DNA of 64,000 nucleotides from an uncultured Armatimonadetes bacterium (GTDB lineage Bacteria > Armatimonadota > Hebobacteria > Hebobacterales > Hebobacteraceae), in the NCBI GenBank assembly GCA_963716175.1, contig OY970296.1:4096001-4160000 (forward strand), written 5' to 3'. The translations under genes and the position numbers were made by a program. Each line of letters starts with the position of its first letter. The stretch's first letter is position 1. Shown piece after piece: positions 1-50,335 of this stretch. The notes below the pieces were generated by a model that was not told the DNA's origin, made no database searches, and saw only the letters and a program-made list of their open reading frames with translations.

Positions 1-467
1 GGGAGAAGGCGCTGGCTGATTTCTTCGAGGCCACCGTGGCCGCGGGCGCGCCGCCCAAGGGGGCCGCGAACTGGCTGATGGTGGAGCTGCTGCGTCTGCT
101 CAACGAGCGCCAGATGCAGATTGCCCAGGTGGCGGTCACGCCGGAGGCTCTGGCCGAGTTGGTCTCGCTGGTCGAGGCCGGCACCGTCAGCGCGCTGGCC
201 GCGAAGAGCGTGTTCGCCCAGCTTTTCGGGCGCGGCGGCTCCGCCGCGGCCATCGTGGCCGAACTCGGCCTGGCTCAGATCAGCGACGAGGCCCAGCTCG
301 CCGCGACCGTGGAGGAAGTGCTGACCGAGAACCCGGACGCGGTGGCCAACTTCAAGGCGGGAAACGAGAAGTCGCTGGGCTTCCTGGTCGGCCAGGTGAT
401 GCGCAAGAGCGGCAAGCGCGCCAACCCGCAACTGGTGAACAAGCTCCTCCGAGATCGGCTCCTGTAG
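1..467 (+). CDS. gatB: Asp-tRNA(Asn)/Glu-tRNA(Gln) amidotransferase subunit B, C-terminal part (5' truncated by window)
   Basis: GatB/YqeY C-terminal motifs AANWLMVEL, GLAQISDE, GFLVGQVMRKSGKRANP. Confidence 0.9.
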   Translation, partial: EKALADFFEATVAAGAPPKGAANWLMVELLRLLNERQMQIAQVAVTPEALAELVSLVEAGTVSALAAKSVFAQLFGRGGSAAAIVAELGLAQISDEAQLAATVEEVLTENPDAVANFKAGNEKSLGFLVGQVMRKSGKRANPQLVNKLLRDRLL

Positions 468-615
468 GGCGGGCATGTCTCTGCATGCCCGCCGGCCGTT
501 GCCCTTCTGTAGGGCGGGCATTCCCATGCCCGCCGGGGCAGGCCTGCCCTACCCCGCGCCGTCGTTGTAGGGGCGTGATTCATCACGCCCAGGGCGCAAT
601 GAATTGCTCCCCTAC
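464..615. repeat. Cluster of GTAG-headed REP-like palindromes
   Basis: GTAGGGCGGGCATGTCTCTGCATGCCCGCC at 464-493 (identical copy at 41569-41598), a second unit at 509-534, and an inverted doublet GTAGGGGCGTGATTCATCACGCCC...AATGAATTGCTCCCCTAC at 567-615. Confidence 0.85.
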
Positions 616-36654: not shown

Positions 36655-39600
36655 CTAGCCTCCTGCCTGCCCGGAGATTCGCTCTCCCCAGACCATCAGA
36701 TCCGGCGTCAACGGAAAGCCGGGGAAGCGCACGGTGGTGATGGTGGTATTGCCCTGGGGGCTGAGCGGATCAACCCGCGAGCGGGTGTAGCGCAGCAGCG
36801 GGTCATAGGCATAGCTGAGATAGGTGGGCAGAGGCGGGGCGGTGAACATGCCCCCCCACTTGCCGGTCCAGTCCGCCACATCGCCCAGGGGAGCCGGCAT
36901 ATTCTCGGAGATGGCGCCGTAGACCGAGATGCAGATATTGAGGGGCTCGTGGTAGGCGGGGTAGTCTACGCTGGGATAGGAGTCCTTGGTGCTGAAGTCC
37001 TCGTTGAACCACGGCCCCGGGATGATGAACCAGGAGCCATTCTGCGCGTAGATCAGGGCCTGCACCTGGACCTGCAAAGGAATCATGACCTGCTTATCTT
37101 CTGCGTTGATATCCATGTACCGCGGTGGGGCGATGGCGATGGGGCCGAGGAGGTAGCCGAGTTCGTCAGGCCTGACGACCCAGGAGTAGCTCCCGTCGGC
37201 TGCCTGTTCTCGCACCGGCATGACCTTGGGTGTGAATGTGAGGGTGTCTCTTCCGGTGAGGGTGATGCCGGAGAGGGCCATGGTCTGCCGGCCCGCGATG
37301 GGCAGGAACTCAGGAACACCGTTAGCGGGGAGACCGCTCGTGGAATCGAAGTTGAACCAGACGCCGGACTTGGTGGTGCCGGAGCCAGCGTCGGCTACGA
37401 ATGTGTAAGGATCTGAGGCGTCCCAGACTGGGGTCTCGTTAACAGCTAGCTGCTCGACCTGCACGCTCGCCTTCTTGTCCGTAGGCATTGTCGGCGGGCT
37501 CGGGGTGATGTCGTCTGCGCCCTCCCACGGCTGAGTCCCGTCCTGCATATACCATGCCGAATGCCCGATGATCAGGCGCAGGTCGAGCATCTGCTGGTAG
37601 TTCGCCGGGAAGGCGGCGAGGCGCACGCTGCGATAGGTGTAGGTGATGTTCGCAGGGATCGTGGGGATTGGAGTGGTGTCATCCCAGTTCCCAGGGGTGG
37701 GATCAAGCTCGGGGTCGCCCTGCGCGAAGGCGTACTGCGGGTACTGCTGCCGCGGGTAGCGCGGCTGCAAGTCGTTGTAGTATTGCGGGTTGTTGCTCCC
37801 GTCGAGCGGCGCGCTCAGCAGATCCTGCGGCCGGGGGTTGAGGGCGGTGGTGTTGAGGCAGACGTAATCGCGGGCGATGAGGGCGAGGCGGGAGCCCCAG
37901 GCCAGCTCATCATCGAGGGTCAAGGGGGTGGTGGCGCCCTGCACGGCGAGGCCAGCGCCCAGCGGCCCCGGGGTGAGCAGGTCGCCCTCGATGTAGATGG
38001 TGCCGCCGGACACCACCTGCAAGTCGAAGCGGCGGCGCTGGCCGTCGGTCTTGCTGTACCCGCCCGCATCGAAGTAGGTGGTGGGATAGACACCCGCGGT
38101 GGGGCCGGGCCGCGCCGGGGGCATGATGCCGCGAATGCGGACATTGCCATCGGCGTAGATCACGCCATTCGGAGGAAACGGGAAATAGGCGGCGGCTTGT
38201 TCCACCCTGACCGCGTGTCCCGTGCCCAGGGGCAGGCAGTATCCAGGCACGGACGAATACGGCAAGGTCCCGGTGGCGGAGACGACCGTACCATCGGGGC
38301 CCTGCCAGTAGTACTGGCTGCCCGTCGCACCCTTGACGTCGTCGCGGGTGATCTCCAGGTAGGGGCACTTGCTCTCCCCATGCAGCACGATCTCCACGCC
38401 GGGGGGCGCGTAGTAGCGAGCGGTCCGGTCCCACCAGTCGGCGGGGCCGAGGGGAGGCGAAGTCGGTACGGTCGAAGCCGCGGCGGTGGTTCTCTGGTCG
38501 CCTCGAGGCGCGGGCGAAAGGTTGGTGTCGTGCACTCCCACCGAGCCCACCCAGTTCAGCCGCAGCTTCTCGAGGTCGTGGTTGTACTGGATATCTTCCC
38601 GGTTATCAATGTAGAGGCCGCCGTAGTTGGTCCACCCCCAGCCATAGAGGCCGGTGTTGTAGAACTCCTGGCGCTGCCCGACGATTCTCGACTTCCACTC
38701 GCCGGAATCCCGGGTGAGGGCGAGGTAGCGGTTGGTGAGCAGCTCGGGCTGGACGGCGTCCATGAGCGGGGGCCGCACCCGGGGCACGGCCAGGTAGGGC
38801 GCCGGAAGCGGGTCCGCTCCTCCCGCCGGCGTGTAGGGCGGCAGGCTGGCCAGCACCCGGCAGGTGTTGGGATCAGCGGTGTTGTCGGACCGCAGGGCAT
38901 CGGGATAGCCGTTCATGTAGAGCAGGGACTCGGTGCCGGTGGCGGGATGAAAGACATCGCTGGCGCGGGAGACGCCATCCACGAAGAGGTTGAGCACGCT
39001 GAGGCCGCTGACGGGGGTGATCTCCGGATTGCCCGGGCGGAAGTCGCCCGCCACCTCGATGCGGTCATCGCGAAAGAGGTTGACATTCGCGTCCTTGGTG
39101 AAAAGCTCGACCCGGGAGGGGCCATACCAGTAGAGCTGGGTGTTGGAGCGAACGGGCCCGGAGATGCGAAACGGGATGGTCTCCCGGCCCAGGCCGGTGG
39201 GATACTCCACCCCAGTGACGCCCAGGGCGGCGGGCCGGCCGGTCTCGAAGCGGTCGGTGATGAAGCGGGCGTAGTCGGTGAGCAGGAGGGGCTTGAGGGC
39301 GAGCACGGTGTGGCGCAGGAACGGGTTATCGGGGAAGACCGCGCTCGCCACCACCCGCACGAAGCGGGTCTGAAGGCGGCCGGGGCTGGGGTCGGGGCCA
39401 TAGCTGACCTCAACGCTGACGTCGCCGCCCCCGGAGCGGTAGACCTTCTGGCTGGGGCGCCAATCCGCGCCCTCCAGGCTGTAGGTGAGCTGCTCGTTGG
39501 CGAAGCGGAGGCCGGCCTCGGCGATGTTGCGAAGCTGGACGACATCGGTGCGCCGGCCGGTCTGGGCGAGGTGAGAGCTGATGATGGCGGCGAAGAGGGC

Positions 39601-39750
39601 AGCCAGGGTGGCCACCGCGAAGAGCACCAGGATGGCGATCATGAGGGCTTGGCCGTGTTGTTGCCGCCACGGCGCGCGAAGCGCCCCAGGCTGGGAGCCT
39701 GGGCTACCGGCCGCTGGTCGCGGACCTGCGCTACTGGTTCTGCTTGGCAT
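36655..39750 (-). CDS. Large PilX/GspK-like minor pilin (1031 aa)
   Basis: HG|QALMIAILVLF class III signal without E5, IAEAGLRFA motif, GVIYADGNVRIRG. Confidence 0.75.
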   Translation of the reverse strand: MPSRTSSAGPRPAAGSPGSQPGALRAPWRQQHGQALMIAILVLFAVATLAALFAAIISSHLAQTGRRTDVVQLRNIAEAGLRFANEQLTYSLEGADWRPSQKVYRSGGGDVSVEVSYGPDPSPGRLQTRFVRVVASAVFPDNPFLRHTVLALKPLLLTDYARFITDRFETGRPAALGVTGVEYPTGLGRETIPFRISGPVRSNTQLYWYGPSRVELFTKDANVNLFRDDRIEVAGDFRPGNPEITPVSGLSVLNLFVDGVSRASDVFHPATGTESLLYMNGYPDALRSDNTADPNTCRVLASLPPYTPAGGADPLPAPYLAVPRVRPPLMDAVQPELLTNRYLALTRDSGEWKSRIVGQRQEFYNTGLYGWGWTNYGGLYIDNREDIQYNHDLEKLRLNWVGSVGVHDTNLSPAPRGDQRTTAAASTVPTSPPLGPADWWDRTARYYAPPGVEIVLHGESKCPYLEITRDDVKGATGSQYYWQGPDGTVVSATGTLPYSSVPGYCLPLGTGHAVRVEQAAAYFPFPPNGVIYADGNVRIRGIMPPARPGPTAGVYPTTYFDAGGYSKTDGQRRRFDLQVVSGGTIYIEGDLLTPGPLGAGLAVQGATTPLTLDDELAWGSRLALIARDYVCLNTTALNPRPQDLLSAPLDGSNNPQYYNDLQPRYPRQQYPQYAFAQGDPELDPTPGNWDDTTPIPTIPANITYTYRSVRLAAFPANYQQMLDLRLIIGHSAWYMQDGTQPWEGADDITPSPPTMPTDKKASVQVEQLAVNETPVWDASDPYTFVADAGSGTTKSGVWFNFDSTSGLPANGVPEFLPIAGRQTMALSGITLTGRDTLTFTPKVMPVREQAADGSYSWVVRPDELGYLLGPIAIAPPRYMDINAEDKQVMIPLQVQVQALIYAQNGSWFIIPGPWFNEDFSTKDSYPSVDYPAYHEPLNICISVYGAISENMPAPLGDVADWTGKWGGMFTAPPLPTYLSYAYDPLLRYTRSRVDPLSPQGNTTITTVRFPGFPLTPDLMVWGERISGQAGG

Positions 39751-41734
39751 AGGGGATCTCGCGCAGCAAATTGTGCAGCTTCACCCGGCGGGTGAGGTAG
39801 GAGGCCTGGGCGATGCGCTCGCCCGCCGGGGCGCTGGGGTCGGCGCGGGAGACGGTGAGGCCGATGTCAATGATGGCGGCGGTGCGGTAGTAGGCGGTGA
39901 TGAGGTCGGGGTGCTCGACCATCTCCTTGGTGATGGCGTCCTGGGCGGTCACGCTGTTGTTGCGCCAGCGGTAGTCCACCTGGAGCTTGGTGGTCGTGGC
40001 GTTGGTCGCCTCACCCGCGGACAGGTTGTCGGGCAAGCGGATCCAGCCGTACCGCGGCTGGTCGGGGTTGTTCACCAGGATGGTCGGGTCCAGGCCCAAC
40101 TGGAACTCATCGCGGCGCTCGCGCGGCGTGCAGTAGACCTGCCTGAGCACCCTGACCACGTTGCCGCTGGGATCCAGGAGCTTCACGGACACGGAATCGG
40201 GGACGACAAAGAGCGTCAGCGCCGAGGTGGCCGTATAGTCTCTCCACTCGTCTCGGAGCGAGAACTCCCAGACTTTGCGGCCTGGCACGCCCGCATTAGC
40301 TAACGGCGTGTCGCTGTTGGGAATCGCCTGGGGCGGGGCCGGGAAGTCGAACCGCAGGGAGCCATCTATCCAGTCTATGGAGAAGCCGAACGCGGGGCTG
40401 TTCGAGGCCGTGAGGGAGCGGAACAGCGACATGTCGCCCGGCTTCGCCAGATGCTGCTGATAGGCGACGACGTCATAGGCCCCGGTGGCAAAGTCGTTGG
40501 TGTCATAGGCGAGACCGGTGGTCAGGTCGAGCACCTTCATGGTGCGGGTGCGCGGGTCGAAGGCGCCGAGGGCCGAGGGCTGGTCGGCGTAGCCGAGCAG
40601 AGTGGTGTTGTAGCGATAGATCATGAGGAAGGGATCGCGCGCCCACTGATCCCAGCGCAACTGTTTCAGCTGCGCCACCAGTGCGGGATTGCTGGCGAGC
40701 GCGGACCACCCGGTGTAGGGAGTGCCCTGCCGCCACAGGGAATAGCGCGCGCGGTAGATGGTGCCATCAGGGCCGGCCGGGCCGTCCAGGGGCCGCATGC
40801 GCTCGCCCGCCACCACCAGGGGGGTGAAGGAGAGCCGAGGGACATCGTACTCGGGAGCGTTGGGGCTGAGGCCGACCACCTTGCTGCGATAGAGGCGCAC
40901 CTGGTCCGGCGTGAGCTTGGTGCCGTAGCTGTTGTAGATGGCCATGAGATAGGGATAGCCGGGCTGAAGGGTGCGGTTGCGGGCGCCAATCCGACTCCCC
41001 GTGGTCACCCAGGTGCGATAGTCCACATCGGAGTGGACCAGGCGCGCAATCGGCGCCCAGTTCTTGGGCCAGTCCGGCACGCCCGTCGGCCGCATGGTGT
41101 CCTGCTCGGCGGCCCATGCCTCATTCCACTGGTTCCAGTCATCGTCGGTGCGGAAGGGCTCAGGCACCACGGTGCGGGCGAGGAAGAAGAGGTTGCCGGG
41201 CTCGAGATGAGTGCCGGGGGTGTAGTTGCGAGTGGGATCGTTGAGCGCCTGCCAGTAGCGGATGGCGCGGCTGTAGTCGGGCCGGGGCGGGGTGACGATC
41301 TCGCTGTTGGGGTCGTCCGGGTTGAGGCGCAGGGGGGGCACGAAGGCGATCATGCTGTTGTCGTACATATCGAGCTGGACGTACATGGCCTCGGCGAGCT
41401 CGCGGGCCATGGTGTCAACCGCGGTGCGGGCCACGGTCTGCGCGTCGGCGCGGGCGGTGGCGGTGCGGAAGTAGCCCAAGCTGTTGGTGATGGGGATGAA
41501 GAGCAGCATCAGCACGATGGCGAGCAGCCCGATGGTGATGAGGAGCTCGGTCAGAGTGAAGGCGCGCTGTAGGGCGGGCATGTCTCTGCATGCCCGCCGT
41601 GTTTCGAAGCGGGGCAGGAGCAAGCTCCTGCCGAACGGGCTTCCCTGTAGGGCGGGTATGCAAAGCATGCCCGCCGCAGGCTGCGTATTCCGATAGGCGG
41701 CGGGCATAGGCATGCCCGCCCTACACACGGACAT
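39731..41734 (-). CDS. Large prepilin-type (PilW/GspJ-like) protein with repeat-filled leader
   Basis: RA|FTLTELLITIGLL, TMARELAEA; ATG overlaps the upstream TGA (TGATG). Confidence 0.82.
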   Translation of the reverse strand: MSVCRAGMPMPAAYRNTQPAAGMLCIPALQGSPFGRSLLLPRFETRRACRDMPALQRAFTLTELLITIGLLAIVLMLLFIPITNSLGYFRTATARADAQTVARTAVDTMARELAEAMYVQLDMYDNSMIAFVPPLRLNPDDPNSEIVTPPRPDYSRAIRYWQALNDPTRNYTPGTHLEPGNLFFLARTVVPEPFRTDDDWNQWNEAWAAEQDTMRPTGVPDWPKNWAPIARLVHSDVDYRTWVTTGSRIGARNRTLQPGYPYLMAIYNSYGTKLTPDQVRLYRSKVVGLSPNAPEYDVPRLSFTPLVVAGERMRPLDGPAGPDGTIYRARYSLWRQGTPYTGWSALASNPALVAQLKQLRWDQWARDPFLMIYRYNTTLLGYADQPSALGAFDPRTRTMKVLDLTTGLAYDTNDFATGAYDVVAYQQHLAKPGDMSLFRSLTASNSPAFGFSIDWIDGSLRFDFPAPPQAIPNSDTPLANAGVPGRKVWEFSLRDEWRDYTATSALTLFVVPDSVSVKLLDPSGNVVRVLRQVYCTPRERRDEFQLGLDPTILVNNPDQPRYGWIRLPDNLSAGEATNATTTKLQVDYRWRNNSVTAQDAITKEMVEHPDLITAYYRTAAIIDIGLTVSRADPSAPAGERIAQASYLTRRVKLHNLLREIPYAKQNQ
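41569..41730. repeat. Four REP-like palindromes inside a prepilin leader
   Basis: 41569-41598 identical to 464-493; 41613-41636 GTTCG/GTTG type; 41647-41730 inverted doublet similar to 45077-45169. Confidence 0.85.
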
Positions 41735-44178
41735 CAGATTGGCCCTCGGGTGAGGTAGGTGCTGACGAAGACCTGGTGCCAGGCCTCCTGCAGAGGGGCT
41801 TTGCGGGGAGCGCCGGCGAGGCCGGCCACCAGCTCCTGGAGGGTAACCGAGCGCCCGGTGGTGACCCAGGTGCTGCGGGCGCGCACGCTCAGCCCGCGCA
41901 CCGCGATGGGCCCCCAGTCGTTGGCCGCGTGCGTGAGCAGAGGATAGGCGAGGGGGCAGACCCACTCGATGTGGGCCTCGGTGCCGAGGTTGAAGTTCAC
42001 GGCGGCGGGGGCGCCGATGGCGTGCACCTCACCCTCCACGAACTCGGGCCGGCCGGTGGTGGGGTTGTCCCAGTAGTAGTCTATGGCGACGGATTGGCCG
42101 GCCTCGCTGAGGGGGAAGTAGATCTGCTGGCGTTCGGCCCAGGCATCGAGCCTCCAGCCATAGGTGAGCTGAGTGGGGTTGGCGCCGGTGGGCGGCCCCC
42201 CGGGCAGGCCGTTGAAGGAGCGCGCGTACTGGCGGGCGGCGAGCGAGAGCTGCACCCCCCAGTCGTTCTGGGCGCGGCAGAAGATGCGATAGGTGCGCCC
42301 TCCCCGGTTCGGGGTGTCTATGTCGGGGTTGTAGCCATAGACGCGGGCCGGGCTGTAGTTGAAGTAGAGCAGCCCTTCCTTGTAGTCAACATTGAAGCGC
42401 ACCCGGCGCATGAACGGGTTGGTGGGCCAGCCGCCGGTCTCGGCCAGCTCGTTATCGCTGAGGATCTCGCCGCTCTGGCGGTCCACCGCCACCACGTAGG
42501 CGTAGCTCCGCTTGTCAGTCACCCAGGTGCTCAGGTCTCGCACGTCATTGCCGTTGGCGTCGTAGATCCGCCTCACACCCCTGCCGACCTCCTGAGGTAC
42601 GGGCTGGCGGGGAGGGTTCATGTAGCCCGCGGACTTGAGACTGCCCACCGGGAGCTGGACCGAGACGCTGGCGAGCTGGTCGAGCAGGGCCTTCTCGGCC
42701 GCGGTGAGCTGAGCCACCGACTTGCGCATCAGCCAATCCTCCAGCGCAAAAGGCGGGACCTCCACATCGAACACCAGGATCTGCCAGTCGGCGACGCGGT
42801 AGTCCGCTTTCGCCACCGTGATGTCGGTGTCGCGCGGGTCGGTCTGAAGCCCGGGGGCGAACAGGATGCGGCCGCTGACCGTGCTCTCCCCGTCCACATA
42901 GTAGCCGTTGCGGGGCCAGTCCTTCAGCGCCAGCGCGCTCTGCCTGTACCCGTTGTACTGCTCAGCGGTGAGCGCGTTCATGCGCTCGTAGACCTGAATG
43001 CTGTTTGCATCCACTCCGAGAGGGAGGGTGGGATCGCCTGGCCCTATGCTGCCCGAAAGCACCTTCACCGTCACGCCGGTCACCCGCTGCCGGCTCAGCG
43101 GATCGGCGTAGTCCACCTTGAAAAAGCGCGCCATCATCGGCGTCTTGGTGCCCGGGCCGAAGTAGAGCTGACCGGTCTCCGTCTTGAGTGTGAACTCGCG
43201 CTCCAGGAGCTGGAAGGGGTCGGCGGATTTGGGTGCGTAGTGCCAGGGCCGGGCGTCGTAGATGTCGAAGTAGACTTGGCTCAGCGTCTGCGTCACTCCC
43301 ACCGTCGGCACCGCGCTCTGTGGTTCATACCGCAGCACGTCCACCGGGGCGTGGGAGAGCAGATAGAAGGGCACGCCGAAGCCGGTCTGGGGCAAGGTGC
43401 GCAGGTCCATGCGCTCGCCGAGGATGGTGCGCGGCAGATACAGGCTGTTGGGCTGCCAGTTGGGGTGGGGCTGGCCGGCCCGTTTGCCGTCCGAGCCCAG
43501 CATTTTCTGGGCGCCATCGAACTGGCTGGGCGTCAGGTCGGCGGGGTTGTAGACGAAGGGCCGCGCGATCCGGTCCAGGTCGGCGATCTGGGCCGTCCCG
43601 AGCGGGAGAGGCGAATAGCGCGCCGCGTCGCCGTAGACCAGCAACTGCCGCAGGCTGCCGCTGTCGTTGGTGACCGTGGCCGGGATCACCTTTCCGTCAT
43701 AGTCGGTGGCGATGATGGCATCCGGGAGCGCGTCCGGGTCGAGCTTCCAGCGGCCCAGCTCGGCGTCGGCGAGCTGGGAGGCGGTGGTCTGCTGCTGGCC
43801 GGCCTCGATGGCGGTGTAGCCGGGGGGGAAGACGCGCAGCATTCCATACACGCCGATGAGCAATACCACCAGCGCGATCAGCAGCTCGATCAGGGTGAAT
43901 GCGCGGGCCGCTCGTAGGGCGGGCGTGGCCAGGTCCGACGGGTCGGACCGCCATGGCGGCCTGTAGGGTGTATCGCAAAAGGGCTCACCGCGGGTGAGCG
44001 ACTTCAGCCAGGGGGCCTGCGAGGCAACTGGGCAGGAGCAAGCTCCTGCCGAACGGGTTTCGCGATACACTCTGCAGGGTCTAGCCGTTCCCAGGCCCGG
44101 CAAGGCTGGCATGGGAATGCCAGCCCTACCATCACCCCGGCGCCGCCGATGGAAACCGATCACGCCTGTTGCGACCAT
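41734..44178 (-). CDS. Large prepilin-type (PilV/GspI-like) protein with repeat-filled leader
   Basis: RA|FTLIELLIALVVLLIG, ASQLADAEL. Confidence 0.82.
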   Translation of the reverse strand: MVATGVIGFHRRRRGDGRAGIPMPALPGLGTARPCRVYRETRSAGACSCPVASQAPWLKSLTRGEPFCDTPYRPPWRSDPSDLATPALRAARAFTLIELLIALVVLLIGVYGMLRVFPPGYTAIEAGQQQTTASQLADAELGRWKLDPDALPDAIIATDYDGKVIPATVTNDSGSLRQLLVYGDAARYSPLPLGTAQIADLDRIARPFVYNPADLTPSQFDGAQKMLGSDGKRAGQPHPNWQPNSLYLPRTILGERMDLRTLPQTGFGVPFYLLSHAPVDVLRYEPQSAVPTVGVTQTLSQVYFDIYDARPWHYAPKSADPFQLLEREFTLKTETGQLYFGPGTKTPMMARFFKVDYADPLSRQRVTGVTVKVLSGSIGPGDPTLPLGVDANSIQVYERMNALTAEQYNGYRQSALALKDWPRNGYYVDGESTVSGRILFAPGLQTDPRDTDITVAKADYRVADWQILVFDVEVPPFALEDWLMRKSVAQLTAAEKALLDQLASVSVQLPVGSLKSAGYMNPPRQPVPQEVGRGVRRIYDANGNDVRDLSTWVTDKRSYAYVVAVDRQSGEILSDNELAETGGWPTNPFMRRVRFNVDYKEGLLYFNYSPARVYGYNPDIDTPNRGGRTYRIFCRAQNDWGVQLSLAARQYARSFNGLPGGPPTGANPTQLTYGWRLDAWAERQQIYFPLSEAGQSVAIDYYWDNPTTGRPEFVEGEVHAIGAPAAVNFNLGTEAHIEWVCPLAYPLLTHAANDWGPIAVRGLSVRARSTWVTTGRSVTLQELVAGLAGAPRKAPLQEAWHQVFVSTYLTRGPI
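43914..44130. repeat. REP-like palindromes inside a prepilin leader
   Basis: GTAGGGCGGGCGTGG at 43914, GTAGGGTGTATCGC / GCGATACACTCTGC inverted pair, GGGCAGGAGCAAGCTCCTGCCGAAC, GGCTGGCATGGGAATGCCAGCCCTAC. Confidence 0.8.
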
Positions 44179-44198
44179 GTCGCCCTACTTACCACCTG

Positions 44199-45212
44199 TC
44201 ACATCACAGGTCCTGCGGGCCAGCCGGTATCGTTCTTGGGTTCCTCGAACATGCGGTTGTCTTTGCGGCTGGCCATGCGGTGCACGCTGCCATCGGCGAA
44301 GAGCACCAGGTCCTTGTCGCCGGCGCTGACCGGGCCCTCGATCCCAGGGCCACGCGGGGCCTTCGCCAGGCGATGGTTGGCGCACCAGGTGACTACGGTG
44401 TCGGCCGGGGGGTAGGGCTGGAGCAGATGGCGGTCCTCCACCCTGTCGCCGACCAGGAAATTCATGGTGCCGGGATTCCAGAAGTTCCGGCGGTAGTACA
44501 TGTCGTAGTTGTTCCAGCCGCTGAGGTCCGGCAGGCGGTCCCTGGTGGTGAGGTCGTTCTCCCTCAACTGGAGGGTGTTGGCGGGGCAGTGGAAGAGGTT
44601 GAGCCGGGTGACGTAGCCGCCGCTCCGGAACCAGAGCAGACCGTCGAAGCCCTGGCGCTTGCCGGCCACCGCCTGCCGGAGGTCGGCCCCGATTCGCGCT
44701 GTGGGCTCCAGGGTGACCGGCGGGAGCACCGAGGAGTAGATCCCCAGGTAGTAGAGGGTATAGAGCCCGAGACCGTGGACGCCGGTGTTGAGCGGGGTGC
44801 CGTCTGTGCCATAGGCGGCGTGGACGACGTCCGCGGGGTTGTCGGTGATCTTATTGGGGTCGGCCGGCAGGGGCAGGTACTCGGTGGAATCGGGAGGGAA
44901 GCACTGGTAGTCTTCGCGAAAGAGAGCGAGCGCCTGGCCGATGGCCTTGAGGTTGGCGGCGCAGGCGTTGCGTTCACCCTGGGCGCTCATGGCCTGGTAG
45001 CCGGGAACCACGATGGCGAGCAAGATGATCATGATCGCCACCACGATCATGAGTTCGACCAGGGTGAAGGCCGCTTGTAGGGCGGGTATGCGAAGCATGC
45101 CCGCCGCAGGCTGCGCCTTCTGATCGGCGGCGGGCATCCGCCTGCGGCGGATACCCGCCCTACACACGGCAACTTCCGGCGCCTGCCGGTGTAGATAGGG
45201 ACGTACGCTCAT
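44199..45212 (-). CDS. Prepilin-type N-terminal cleavage/methylation protein
   Basis: AA|FTLVELMIVVAIMIILLAI, C.ANLK.IG.AL..F, DLVLFADGSV; SD GGGGAG. Confidence 0.85.
   Translation of the reverse strand: MSVRPYLHRQAPEVAVCRAGIRRRRMPAADQKAQPAAGMLRIPALQAAFTLVELMIVVAIMIILLAIVVPGYQAMSAQGERNACAANLKAIGQALALFREDYQCFPPDSTEYLPLPADPNKITDNPADVVHAAYGTDGTPLNTGVHGLGLYTLYYLGIYSSVLPPVTLEPTARIGADLRQAVAGKRQGFDGLLWFRSGGYVTRLNLFHCPANTLQLRENDLTTRDRLPDLSGWNNYDMYYRRNFWNPGTMNFLVGDRVEDRHLLQPYPPADTVVTWCANHRLAKAPRGPGIEGPVSAGDKDLVLFADGSVHRMASRKDNRMFEEPKNDTGWPAGPVM
45077..45169. repeat. Inverted REP doublet (REPIN-like) inside a prepilin leader
   Basis: GTAGGGCGGGTATGCGAAGCATGCCCGCCGCAGGCTGCG ... ATACCCGCCCTACACACGG. 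Confidence 0.85.
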
Positions 45213-45259: not shown

Positions 45260-46582
45260 TCAGTGCGTCAGGCGGGGCTGCTCCGCCCATTGGTACTCGT
45301 ACTGCGGGGGCCCGGCGATGATCTCGGCGGTGCCGTCAAGCCGCAGGACGATGTCGGCTCCACGGTTGGCTTGCTCGTAGGTCACGGTGGGAGCGCCCCC
45401 GCCGCGCCGGCCGCGGCCGCGGCCGCGCTCGCCCGCGGTCCCCTGGGCCGTCGCGGTGCGCCGCTCGGGCGGTTTCACCGTAGTGGTATAGGGCCGATGG
45501 TAGGGACAGCGCGTGACGATGGTGTTCTCGGGGGCATTGCGGTTGATGAGGCCGGGGAAGACGCCGCTGGGCAGGCCCACGTCGTAATTGTGGGCCGCAT
45601 CCGCAGCGTGATAGGGCAGGAGGCTGAGGCTGGCGTCGTCGGTGCCATACCAATCCCACAGGGGCCTCTGCAGGCTGTCCTGGAGGGGATAGCGCCTGTG
45701 GTCGTTCGGGTCGTAGGGATTGACCAGCTCTCCCGCGGTCTGGTCCTCAGGGTTGTAGCTGAACCAGTAGATCTGCTGGGCGAGAGAATAGGGAAGGACG
45801 TCATTCACGAAGGCGAACTTATCGTTGCCCGGCGCGTCCGCGGTTGGCCTGACCACACCGAACTTGCCCTCGGGATCCCAGAAGACCCACCGATACCAGA
45901 AGGCGATGTTGTCGGCCCAGTTCACTCGCTGATTGCCACCCGTTCCCCCCGCCACACCGGGGAGGGGAATAGGGACGTAGGCCTCGTAGCGCCCTTGTTC
46001 TATCGACTTGGAGGGGTCGGGCTGCCACCAGATATAGCCCAGCCAGTTGTAGAGCATGTTATAGCTGGAGTAGTGCTCGCCGAACCAGGTCGGGTTGAGC
46101 CAGTTGCAGCCGGGATAGGGCTGCCTGGTGCCAGGGTAATACCCACCGTCGGGCGGGTCGTACATCTGGCGGGCCTGGATGAGGAGGGTGGCCGTGGGGT
46201 CGGTCAGGAACAGGTCTTGCGTACCGTCGGCTGACCGGAGGTGGAAGGCGCCCTGCTCTGCATAAGTCTTTCCGTCCTCGATGGGATCGTCCGGGCAGAT
46301 GAGGGACTTGCGGTTGTCCAGGTAGGTGGGATAGAGGGCGTTGAACCCGCCGGCCCCGATGACCGGATCATAGGGCCCCGGAAAGCCGCCTTCCTCCAGG
46401 CGGTACATGCGCAGGGCCATGCCGAGGGAGTGCAGGTTGGAGATGCAGACGGCCTGGCGCGCCTTCTCCCGGGCGCGCATCATCACCGGCAGGCCGATGG
46501 CGATGAGCACGGTGATGATGGCGATGACCACCAGCAGCTCGACCAGGGTGAACCCGGTCCGCCGCACGCGGACAGCTTTCAT
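45260..46582 (-). CDS. Prepilin-type protein (DUF1559-like N-terminus)
   Basis: MKAVRVRRTG|FTLVELLVVIAII, AREKARQAVCISNLHSLGMALRMY, DIVLRLDGTA. Confidence 0.88.
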   Translation of the reverse strand: MKAVRVRRTGFTLVELLVVIAIITVLIAIGLPVMMRAREKARQAVCISNLHSLGMALRMYRLEEGGFPGPYDPVIGAGGFNALYPTYLDNRKSLICPDDPIEDGKTYAEQGAFHLRSADGTQDLFLTDPTATLLIQARQMYDPPDGGYYPGTRQPYPGCNWLNPTWFGEHYSSYNMLYNWLGYIWWQPDPSKSIEQGRYEAYVPIPLPGVAGGTGGNQRVNWADNIAFWYRWVFWDPEGKFGVVRPTADAPGNDKFAFVNDVLPYSLAQQIYWFSYNPEDQTAGELVNPYDPNDHRRYPLQDSLQRPLWDWYGTDDASLSLLPYHAADAAHNYDVGLPSGVFPGLINRNAPENTIVTRCPYHRPYTTTVKPPERRTATAQGTAGERGRGRGRRGGGAPTVTYEQANRGADIVLRLDGTAEIIAGPPQYEYQWAEQPRLTH

Positions 46583-46733
46583 GCTTGCACCTCGCTCCTC
46601 TGATCCTGCCTGCAAAGCGGCCGGCACCGCGCCGGCCTCGCCGCGCGAAGCACGGCGCGCCCGCGGTCATGCCTACTCTTCGTATACCCGCAGCCCCGCG
46701 GCGGCCAAACGCTGGCCCAGCTCCCACGACGCT

Positions 46734-46855
46734 GTAGGGCGGGGTCCCCTGACCCCGCCAGGCGGCTGTAGGGCGGGGTCCCCTGACCCCGCCAGGCGGC
46801 ATGCGGAGATGCCGCCCTACAGCCCGTTCGAGGGCGCAATGAATTGCGCCCCTAC
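46734..46855. repeat. REP-like cluster with a 34-bp tandem duplication
   Basis: GTAGGGCGGGGTCCCCTGACCCCGCCAGGCGGC x2, then two inverted units ending CCCTAC. Confidence 0.85.
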
Positions 46856-47781
46856 CCCATGAACAACCCCGCCCAGTGATGATACAGCGACAGGGCGGCT
46901 TTTTCCAGCGCGGCCGGGGCCAGCAGCACGGCGAGGGCCGAGACCGCGAGAAAAGGCCCGAAAGGCAGGTACTCCATGCGGCGCCGCAGCCGCAGGGCGA
47001 GCAGCGCCACCCCGAGCACCGCACCGATGGCGATGGCCAGGCCGAAGCTGAGCAGGGCCAGCGCAGGCCCCAGCATGGCGCCGATGGCCCCGGCGAGCTT
47101 GACGTCCCCTAGGCCCATGCCCTCCCGGCGGAAGAGGAGCTGGCTGAAGCCGCGGATGAAGACGAACACCAGCAGGCCCACCACGCCTCCGGCCACCACC
47201 CGGGGCACCGCCAGGGCGGTGCCGGGGAGGCGGACCGAGAGCAGCGGCTGCCCGGAGGCCACCAACAAGCCCTCGCTCAGCACCGCCGCCGCCAGGGCGG
47301 CCCATACCAGCTTGTCCGGTATGATCATATGGTCGAGGTCGGTGAACACGACCGCGATGACAACGGAGGCGAAGATCCAGTACGACAGCACCTGCGCCAG
47401 GGCCAGCAGCGTAGGCTCCCAGCCTCCAGGGGCAGGAGGCAAGCTCCTGCCCAACATACCAACGGCGGCAGGAGGCATAGTGCCAGGCCCCGACGCCTCC
47501 CAGACGGCCACGAACACCAGCCCGGTGATCAGCTCGACGCCGAAATAGCGCCAGGATATGGGGCCGCCGCAGCGGCGGCACTTGCGCCCCAGGGCGAGGA
47601 AGCTCAGCAGGGGCACCAGATCTATGGGCTGCAGCCGCACGCCGCACCGGGGGCAGTAGGACGGCGGCGCGACCACCGATCGGTCCCTGGGCAGGCGGTA
47701 GATGCAGACATTGAGGAAGCTGCCCACCACACAGCCCAGCACAAACACCAGCGGATAGGCCAGCACCCTCGGCAGCGCCAA
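46852..47781 (-). CDS. pilD: Prepilin peptidase/N-methyltransferase
   Basis: GSFLNVCIYRLP, PPSYCPRC, GRKCRRC, DLDHMIIPD, GMGLGDVKL, LPFGPFL. Confidence 0.93.
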   Translation of the reverse strand: MALPRVLAYPLVFVLGCVVGSFLNVCIYRLPRDRSVVAPPSYCPRCGVRLQPIDLVPLLSFLALGRKCRRCGGPISWRYFGVELITGLVFVAVWEASGPGTMPPAAVGMLGRSLPPAPGGWEPTLLALAQVLSYWIFASVVIAVVFTDLDHMIIPDKLVWAALAAAVLSEGLLVASGQPLLSVRLPGTALAVPRVVAGGVVGLLVFVFIRGFSQLLFRREGMGLGDVKLAGAIGAMLGPALALLSFGLAIAIGAVLGVALLALRLRRRMEYLPFGPFLAVSALAVLLAPAALEKAALSLYHHWAGLFMG

Positions 47782-49176: not shown

Positions 49177-50335
49177 CTACCCTTCTTCGCCTCGCGTGAA
49201 CAGCATCTTCTTCAGCTCATCTTGATTCATCGCCCGCCCCATCGCTTCCTCGTAGGTGATCAGGCCCCGCTGGTAGAGGTCGCGCAGGCACTGATCCATG
49301 GTCTGCATGCCCAGGTGAGCGCTGGTCTGGATGATGGAGGTGATCTGGTGCGCCTTTGCCTCCCGGATCAGGTTGCGAACGGCGGGCGAGGCGACCATGA
49401 TCTCCATCGCCGGCACCCGGCCGGGAGTGCCGGCGCGGGGCAGCAACTGCTGGGAGAGCACCGCCTCCAGGTTGTTGGAGAGCTGGATGCGGATCTGCTC
49501 CTGCTGTCCGGGCGGGAACACGTCCACGATGCGGTCTACGGTCTGCGCCGCGCTGTTGGTGTGAACCGTGGAGAAGACCAAGTGGCCGGTCTCGGCGGCG
49601 GTGATGGCCAGGGCCATGGTCTCCAGGTCCCGCATCTCACCCACCAGGATGACATCCGGGTCCTCCCGCAGGGCGTGCTTGCAGCGCGGCCGGGAAGGAG
49701 CGGGTGTCGGCTCCCAGCTCCCGCTGGTTGATGAGGCTGCGGCGGTGGGTGTGGAGATACTCGATGGGGTCCTCGATGGTGACGATATGGCAGGAGCGCT
49801 CATTGTTGATCTGGCCGATCATGGCGGCCAGGGTGGTGGACTTGCCGGAGCCGGTGGGCCCGGTTACCAGGATCAGGCCGCGAGGACGCCGGCTGAGATC
49901 CTCCAGCACCAGGGGCAACCCCAGCTCGCGCACCGTGGGGATGCGGGAGGGGATCACGCGGAAGGCGCCGGCCACGGAGCCGCGATCGCGATAGACGTTG
50001 ACCCGGAAGCGGGAGATACCCTTCAACTCGTAGGAGCAGTCCAGCTCATAATCGGTCTCGAAAGCACGGATCTGCTCATCCGTGAGGATGGCGTAGACCA
50101 TGCGCTGCACTGCGAAATCCGTCAGCACCTCGTAGTTGGTGGCGAGAAGCTGGCCGTCAATGCGCAGCACCGGGGGGACGCCCGCGGCCATGTGCAGGTC
50201 GGAGCCCCGCTTCTCCACCACCAGCCGGAGCAGGTCGTCAATGTGCACTTCCTCGATGGCGCGCACCTGGGCGACGCGGGCGGTGGGCAGTCGCTGGGTG
50301 GTGGCCGCGCCCAGAGACTCACTGCCTTCTCCCAT
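49177..50335 (-). CDS. pilT: Pilus retraction ATPase (frameshift near 49681)
   Basis: [61 protein letters not shown]. Confidence 0.9.

Follow-up and report, generated by a model that had tools for sequence, protein, structure and literature searches.

In-frame palindromic repeats between conserved start codons and class III cleavage motifs in prepilin-type genes of an uncultured Armatimonadota bacterium

The window analysed in this study is a stretch of 64,000 nucleotides (nt) from an uncultured Armatimonadetes bacterium (assembly GCA_963716175.1, contig OY970296.1, positions 4,096,001 to 4,160,000), and the source genome (G000) is a single contig of 4.56 Mb with 66% GC. On the minus strand of the window, five prepilin-type genes, g1 to g5, lie downstream of pilD, the prepilin peptidase gene. 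In g2, g3 and g4, repetitive extragenic palindromic (REP) elements and other small palindromes fill the DNA between the start codon and the class III cleavage motif in an open frame, which gives leaders of 48, 93 and 58 amino acids (aa). It appears rather likely that these repeats are translated as leader extensions which are removed by PilD, the leader being a tolerated landing pad for them.

Repeat-filled leaders in the source genome

A class III leader is hydrophilic, ends in Gly or Ala, is kept in the cytoplasm as the positive-inside rule demands, and is cleaved away by the prepilin peptidase, according to the portions of two papers used here (PMC10191384, PMC4471445). The elements of the motif, i.e. 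G or A at position -1, F at +1, E at +5, and approximately 20 hydrophobic residues, are all present in g1 to g4 (with a slash at the cleavage site, g1 G/FTLVEL, g2 A/FTLVEL, g3 A/FTLIEL, and g4 A/FTLTEL). The corresponding region of g5 is G/QALMIAIL, without F1 or E5. The comparison set consisted of 11 related genomes, from the same family as the source genome and from other genera, and 23 metagenome contigs; related genomes are denoted G005, G011 (also L021) and L025, comparison loci L031 to L043, and X1 is a sequencing run. The leader of g1 is MKAVRVRRTG/F (10 aa, start at 46582), and the other four are as follows, in window positions.

45069-45212, minus strand: leader of g2, 48 codons, ATG at 45212 and F codon at 45068; the ATG follows a G-rich run resembling a Shine-Dalgarno (SD) sequence and a conserved AGACC motif; net charge +7.
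43900-44178, minus strand: leader of g3, 93 codons, ATG at 44178 and F codon at 43899; the ATG is 20 nt past the g2 stop, likewise in G005 and G011; net charge +9.
41561-41734, minus strand: leader of g4, 58 codons, ATG at 41734 and F codon at 41560; the ATG shares one base with the g3 stop (TGATG); net charge +6.
39652-39750, minus strand: leader of g5, 33 aa (32 codons and the G before QALMIAIL), ATG at 39750 within the sequence for the C terminus of g4; ancestral length.

These starts and leader coordinates, together with those of g1, had been given in the original prediction, and all of them were verified by re-reading the frames, including the one-base overlap of ATG 41734 with the g3 stop. 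The same prediction counted four repeat-expanded leaders. This holds for g2, g3 and g4, and does not hold for g5, the leader of which is as long as in relatives and contains one small palindrome of another family; ATG 39750 is the sole in-frame start of g5. The claim that g3 lacks an in-frame ATG for about 70 codons before the cleavage site proved correct, since the nearest canonical in-frame starts are GTG at -57, TTG at -68, and ATG at -71, and the 57 codons before the site contain no ATG, GTG or TTG. Every leader is hydrophilic with a positive net charge, from +4 to +9, which fits the positive-inside rule for a cytoplasmic leader.

In g2 and g3, the leader opens with approximately 15 codons of unique sequence, and in g4 the repeats begin after three codons. 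Repeats are present at every junction of the pilD-g1-g5 operon, and those located are listed below; an inverted REP doublet is abbreviated as REPIN.

46732-46856, minus strand: intergenic REP cluster in the pilD-g1 spacer, with at least three REP-type hairpins; up to 10 or more further copies from elsewhere in the genome cover it.
45077-45169, minus strand: REPIN-like inverted REP doublet of 93 nt in the g2 leader, with in-frame ATGs at -23 and -10.
44104-44129, minus strand: GTAG-headed hairpin variant of the GTAGGGCTGGCAT type in the g3 leader.
43965-44075, minus strand: composite palindromic element of 111 nt in the g3 leader, including a GGCAGGAGCTTGCTCCTGCC hairpin (16 copies in the genome).
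43912-43961, minus strand: degenerate REP in the g3 leader, head 12 nt before the F codon, with ACG in place of the ATG of the g2 and g4 copies.
41647-41730, minus strand: REPIN-like doublet of 84 nt in the g4 leader, related as a sibling to that of g2; the g4 leader of L031 lacks it.
41609-41640, minus strand: second-family hairpin (GGCAGGAGCTTGCTCCTGCC) in the g4 leader; further occurrences are in the leaders of g3, of G011 g5 and of L031 g4.
41569-41598, minus strand: single REP in the g4 leader, head 6 nt before the F codon, which provides the in-frame ATG (at -7) of MPALQRA/F; as predicted, it is identical to window positions 464-493.
39684-39708, minus strand: small palindrome of another family (CAGGCTCCCAGCCTG) in the g5 leader; its 15-nt core has 29 genomic copies.

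The two doublets were predicted to be siblings, and they are 89% identical across 70 nt. Genome-wide, however, the doublet spacer is found at these two places only, so that the doublet is at most a candidate mobile unit. A hairpin, GGCAGGAGCTTG(C/T)TCCTGCC with a CCGTTC flank, is common to three genomes of different genera, at 41609-41640 and 44030-44061 in the source genome, at 10800-10827 in L021, and in the g4 leader of L031. In some leaders its frame gives PFGRSLLLP, and in others RSAGACSC.

The 10-nt core GTAGGGCGGG of the REPs is present in 245 copies genome-wide, on both strands, versus approximately 37 expected, and a 13-nt core in 120 copies versus approximately 0.4 expected. The consensus of the 245 aligned cores is CTGTAGGGCGGGCAT-loop-ATGCCCGCCG, often with GGCCGT flanking both sides, a layout that matches the anatomy of GTAG-tagged REPs in the part of the REP survey used here (PMC3733652). 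To judge by this layout, the family is a classic GTAG-headed REP/REPIN family, i.e. a short imperfect palindrome with a head at one end. Genes for REP-associated tyrosine transposases (RAYTs), which the original prediction linked to such repeats, were looked for, and five matches of the RAYT-type domain Y1_Tnp (PF01797) exceed the Pfam cut-off in the genome. Three of them have a REP core within 700 nt, and the match at genome positions 962134-962391 is flanked by inverted REP copies at 961982 and 962582. Mobilisation of the REPs by these transposases is suggested, indirectly, by copies which are present or absent between 95%-identical contigs and between the source genome and L031.

The accumulation of REPs in the operon exceeds chance. 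Segments beginning at the g4 leader contain 6 cores in 3.7 kb and 8 cores in 5.4 kb, which is the genome maximum at both sizes, and nowhere else in the genome are REPs as dense as in this operon. A REP core lies within 60 nt of the F codon in 3 of the 63 FTLxE-type prepilin genes, namely g2, g3 and g4 only, all of this operon. Among the other 60 genes, at least 52 have one common N-terminus, and most have a start codon 5-13 residues before F. It was also observed that the genome has about 60 prepilin-type genes, most with one identical N terminus and leaders of 6-12 aa, which form a large DUF1559-like paralogue family.

Start codons and reading frame in relatives

The gene order pilD-g1-g2-g3-g4-g5 is kept in the genomes of the same family and in the 23 metagenome contigs. 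In the frame test, ATGs were sought at conserved positions in any frame and then checked against the frame of the F codon and for openness. The g4 ATG lies at most 2 nt from the g3 stop in 19 of 24 distinct junctions, and all 19 of these adjacent ATGs are in frame and open to F, at 13 distinct distances from 54 to 273 nt; of all g4 ATGs found, 20 of 21 are in frame. For g5, the ATG lies within the conserved end of g4 in 17 of 19 junctions, is in frame in all 17, and is open in 15 (60-234 nt). Twenty-two g3 ATGs were found 10-30 nt past the g2 stop, of which 16 are in frame; at 17-20 nt past the stop, 13 of 14 are in frame and open (72-279 nt), and the g3 ATG in relatives is preceded by a purine-rich SD-like run. 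In g2, an AGAC[CT] motif, which was selected after the starts had been seen, is followed by an ATG in 12 of 23 junctions, and all 12 are in frame (66-186 nt). In eight of nine genomes, 8-9 codons separate the only or nearest g1 ATG from the conserved G (22 codons in L025), and in the metagenome loci the distance is mostly 9 codons, with 34-52 in three.

Across g2 to g5, therefore, the distance from the start to the cleavage motif ranges from 54 to 279 nt with the frame retained. Each distinct leader length requires one indel or more, and every one of these is a multiple of three. On this comparison, the starts of the source genome at 45212, 44178, 41734 and 39750 are orthologues of the conserved starts. 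That these starts stay in frame despite several-fold variation in leader length supports the earlier proposal that the repeats are translated.

Where relatives have a single possible start, the leaders are 24-27 aa in g2, approximately 17-40 in g3, 18-23 in g4, and 20-31 in g5. Relatives too have expanded leaders, of 41-91 aa, which are built from their own dispersed repeats. In G011, from another genus of the same family, the leaders of g3, g4 and g5 are 82, 91 and 78 aa; within 91 codons of the site, its g4 holds neither ATG nor GTG and only a TTG at -74, and its g3 has no start within 43 codons. The G011 g4 leader matches at least 48 other sites in that genome, its own g3 and g5 leaders included (40 of 112 candidates scored), and a repeat unit of G011 occurs in two frames inside a single leader. 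Both the g3 and the g4 leader of G005 are 41 aa, with 21 and 6 matches, respectively, elsewhere in G005. In the metagenome contigs, g4 leaders are 36-53 aa and g2 and g3 leaders reach 62-67 aa, with recognisable palindromes. The original prediction had named true starts located past the repeats, for each of the four genes, as an outcome that would speak against it; this outcome does not hold for g3 of the source genome, nor for g3 and g4 of G011.

L031 shares with the source genome the hairpin and the REP of the g4 leader, and their order, but not the doublet, and the REP beside the g2 F codon is common to the source genome and L032, in different frames. Seven related genomes have g4 leaders of 18-23 aa that are repeat-free. 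The g3 and g5 leaders of L031, L032 and L042 carry a widespread palindrome type, GTCATCCTGAGCG...CGAAGGATC; several unrelated repeat families therefore occupy the same niche. An exact-motif scan with two cores of the source genome gave 7 matches in 15.9 kb of the relatives' junctions versus 9 in 280 kb elsewhere, which is a weak comparison since the loci include near-duplicates and other genomes carry other repeat families.

Differences between close relatives preserve the frame as well. Near g2, L032 and L035 are 95% identical, yet the lengths of their g2 leaders are a net 30 nt (10 codons) apart, L032 carrying a REP there; whether orthologous leaders differ by multiples of three was a test asked for in the original prediction. 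Of the sequencing runs listed as containing the sequence, 20 were of DNA and none of RNA. Strain-level data consisted of short Logan contigs of four runs, which break at repeats; many joints with sides below 30 nt between repeats were left out, as they are probably from other loci. In one X1 contig, 171 nt of the g4 leader are replaced by 28 other letters, and this variant, read by hand, has a stop and directly after it an ATG, in frame, 10 codons before F. In a second X1 contig, judged by the two sides of the joint (43964 to 44076), precisely the composite element of 111 nt in the g3 leader is left out. In a contig approximately 98% identical over the g2 leader, the only indel affects the G-run, 6 nt ahead of ATG 45212. 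Overall, the frame is kept in all three strain differences inside leaders, and the single-base indel falls just outside the g2 leader.

The genes are part of a type IV filament cluster on the minus strand, in the order PilB/GspE-type ATPase, PilT-like ATPase, PilC/GspF, PilD, g1-g5, PilM, and, further on, secretin. The members which bear on the leaders are as follows.

46852-47781, minus strand: PilD prepilin peptidase (A24), at the head of the pilD-g1-g5 block (Pfam A24_N_bact 5.5e-31, Peptidase_A24 5.1e-15).
45260-46582, minus strand: g1, GspG/DUF1559-like pilin with a 10-aa leader (N_methyl, DUF1559; TIGR02532 25.4 bits).
44199-45068, minus strand: mature part of g2, 289 aa (tblastn against relatives, 46-60% identity).
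41734-43899, minus strand: mature part of g3, 721 aa, with a PilV-like N terminus (comparison with relatives, TIGR02532).
39731-41560, minus strand: mature part of g4, 609 aa (comparison with relatives, TIGR02532).
36655-39651, minus strand: mature part of g5, approximately 1000 aa, with a PilX/GspK-like N terminus without F1 or E5 (comparison with relatives).

TIGR02532 exceeds its cut-off in g1, g3 and g4, and the N_methyl score of g2 (20.5 bits) is just below the cut-off of 21.2. A g3 orthologue was detected in 13 of 14 related genomes searched, with 50-59% identity; the 23 metagenome contigs are 41-57% identical, the best locus reaching 57% in g3. The PilT-like ATPase (window 49177-50335, minus strand) is split in two overlapping open reading frames (ORFs), owing either to a frameshift in the gene or to an indel of the assembly.

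Mechanism and alternative explanations

A proposed mechanism, close to the safe harbour of the original prediction, can be described as follows. The g2, g3 and g4 products would be minor pilins, translated from ancestral starts located right after the upstream stop (g3, g4) or approximately 45 nt after it (g2). The class III leader of this family, which is uncommonly long (about 18-30 aa), would be free to vary, and REP and REPIN elements mobilised by RAYTs, together with other small palindromes, would insert in the DNA coding for it. Because g3, g4 and g5 start on or just past the upstream stop, the leader is almost the only unconstrained DNA. Selection would discard insertions by which the frame is lost or a stop is gained, the surviving repeats would be translated as a basic cytoplasmic leader of 48, 93 or 58 aa (g2, g3 and g4) with a charge of +6 to +9, and PilD would cut the extended leader off, so that the mature pilin is unaffected. 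The ATGs borne by the last REP of g2 and g4 could also yield forms with short leaders. The findings that the repeat families differ by genome, that their presence varies among close relatives, and that one repeat is read in several frames agree with tolerance rather than function.

A more general version, which we regard as doubtful, is that class III leaders are a protein-level laundering site, where palindromes colonise packed operons since the prepilin peptidase deletes their product, and that giant leaders have perhaps been co-opted. In that case, hairpins and internal starts may set the dose of minor pilins, or the leaders may delay the membrane insertion of very large pilins.

Several points weigh against translation of the repeats as removable leaders. 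Described leaders are 6-26 aa, or approximately 15-30 aa for type IVb, in the part of PMC4471445 used here, and 48-93 aa is beyond this range. The REP-borne ATGs lie 10 (g2) and 7 (g4) codons before F and would give leaders of normal length, and residue -1 is Ala in g2, g3 and g4, which is allowed and less usual. The frame test has exceptions, since g3 of L043 is out of frame, an in-frame stop is present in g5 of L032 and L035 and in g3 of L034, and the adjacent ATG is missing in 5 of 24 g4 junctions; moreover, the junctions compared share kinship and are not independent trials. The X1 joints are single contigs, the g4 joint having a side of 30 nt. Frame breaks occur in the assemblies, in pilD, g4 and g5 of G011 and in the pilT-like gene of the source genome, although assembly indels would destroy frames, not create them. 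Finally, among the 245 cores of the source genome, in 78 core-and-frame cases a coding-like stretch follows downstream of the core, which itself lies in an open frame, and translation, PilD cleavage of such long leaders and the neutrality of the insertions are all inferred from sequence.

Two of these points can be described further. In g5 of L032 and L035, the conserved ATG is in frame and is followed by the in-frame stop; the next in-frame ATG is 22 nt past the g4 stop and 54 codons before G, and the g5 start seems to be displaced in this lineage. In G011 (L021), a single contig with a completeness score of 65%, tblastn frame changes were found within pilD, g4 and g5, and the assembly probably carries many indel errors.

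Because open frames across REPs are common at 66% GC, the uninterrupted frame through the repeats is weak evidence. The original prediction was right that the repeats are crossed without a stop or frameshift in the source genome; as evidence by itself, this does not stand, and the absence of stop codons was rejected as proof of translation since REP-spanning open frames are common there. Avoidance of the TAG frame by the three forward REP heads in the leaders was also considered, and it is uninformative, with a chance of approximately 0.3. As a side observation, ten core-and-frame cases (genome positions 1524722, 3377678 and 3378430 among them) have coding-like GC content at third codon positions on both sides in the same frame; some of these are true hairpin REPs, and they may be in-frame intragenic insertions or adjacent genes that share a frame.

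One alternative is that the repeats are untranslated intercistronic RNA, that translation starts at the REP-borne ATGs (g2 MLRIPALQAA/F and g4 MPALQRA/F) and at a non-canonical codon in g3, and that the open frames result from the 66% GC. The in-frame ATGs inside the last REP of g2 and g4, the 78 open core-and-frame cases, and the X1 contig with only about 10 codons before F in g4 are in agreement with it, as is the opinion of Di Nocera et al., in the part of PMC3733652 used here, that most N-terminal REPs in three species are non-coding. However, g3 has ACG at the equivalent site and no canonical start in 57 codons, and G011 g4 has no start for 74 codons. Under this alternative, the upstream ATGs need no frame, yet they are in frame in 19 of 19 cases in g4, 17 of 17 in g5, and 13 of 14 in g3; in addition, the REP-borne ATGs lie within hairpin stems without a spaced SD sequence. 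It is therefore considered unlikely.

A selected role of the hairpins at the RNA level, by which they lower or couple the translation of minor pilins or stabilise segments of the mRNA, with the frame as a side condition, a role akin to the translational tuning raised in the original prediction, is also improbable. The cluster is the densest in the genome, the predicted RNA folds of the leaders are very stable (z -6.4, -3.75 and -3.46, the g4 leader having -106.8 kcal/mol and z -6.4), the REP head abuts the F codon (6 nt in g2, 12 nt in g3, 6 nt in g4), REPs or hairpins occupy matching positions in the source genome, L031 and L032, and REPs are described to affect mRNA stability in the part of PMC3733652 used here. 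Against this role, seven related genomes have short, repeat-free g4 leaders (18-23 aa), repeat families differ between genomes, and the presence of a repeat varies between 95%-identical contigs.

That the operon is decaying, with repeats piling up on pseudogenes under relaxed selection, is highly improbable: g3 has lost the ATG present in its sister REPs, the nearby pilT-like gene is split by a frameshift, and the repeat load is extreme, but the five pilin ORFs, of 290-1000 codons, are unbroken and share 41-60% identity with their orthologues over the whole length, the frames are maintained through the repeats, and many relatives have the same pattern.

Comparison with known systems and significance

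The closest known cases share some features with the leaders described here. Rickettsia palindromic elements (RPE; Ogata et al. 2000, cited through PMC2229807 and PMC3733652) are likewise small mobile palindromes that lie in frame, are translated with the host protein, and are tolerated where they are harmless. By these secondary accounts, RPE are kept on the surface of the mature protein, whereas the repeats of the present leaders belong to the GTAG REP/RAYT family, are stacked several per gene, and lie in a segment removed by proteolysis; as all of them are upstream of the cleavage motif, a repeat-encoded peptide is not expected in the functional protein. Di Nocera et al. 2013 (PMC3733652) described intragenic REPs of the GTAG/CGTC type, which belong to the same superfamily, with a GTAG head, a hairpin, and a link to RAYTs. 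In the part of that survey used here, in which prepilin leaders do not figure, REP dimers code for 20-30 aa and clusters for 43-82 aa within ORFs, and many are at N termini; most of the N-terminal ones were taken for wrongly annotated starts, whereas the conserved starts and frame favour translation in the present case.

REPINs and their RAYTs (Bertels and Rainey 2011, PMC3116915) resemble the present repeats in their inverted REP doublets with a spacer, their hundreds of copies, and the REP-flanked RAYTs. In the portion of that work used here, REPINs are described as extragenic, in contrast to the two sibling doublets within leader-coding DNA. Long leaders are also described for type IVb pilins and for some of type IVa (PMC4471445, PMC10191384); these are likewise hydrophilic and positive, vary in length, and end in Gly or Ala. 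They are 6-26 or approximately 15-30 aa by the sections used here, whereas those of the putative minor pilins of this study are 48-93 aa and repeat-derived, and the family baseline of 18-31 aa is already long. In the Yersinia YPAL case (YPO1552; Delihas, PMC2229807), a mobile repeat also codes for part of a predicted N-terminal targeting peptide. From the section of that paper used here, YPAL is a single case, in which the repeat is the hydrophobic part of a Sec-type signal of a hypothetical protein, whereas here the dispensable hydrophilic leader of conserved pilins is filled, repeatedly, across genera.

In a literature search, no paper that ties REPs or MITEs (miniature transposable elements with inverted repeats) to prepilin leaders was found; Additional file 3 of PMC3733652, on intragenic REPs, might list pilin genes. 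In-frame insertion of REPs or MITEs as such is already known (PMC3733652, PMC2229807), and, as far as the sections of these papers used here go, what is new is the class III leader as a niche that is colonised repeatedly across genera, and the size of the leaders.

For annotation, the operon is a case in which gene callers will truncate genes at repeat-borne ATGs or be blamed for over-extension, which comparative anchoring of the starts resolves. The leaders are also a natural experiment on selfish DNA, since in compact operons selection appears to sieve repeat insertions by frame alone, and the DNA of a cleaved leader would be a niche for REP and REPIN elements, one on which the papers used here are silent. 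If the long leaders are processed, the range of class III leaders would grow several-fold, from approximately 6-30 aa to 48-93 aa, and the sequence of the leader would be nearly irrelevant to the prepilin peptidase.

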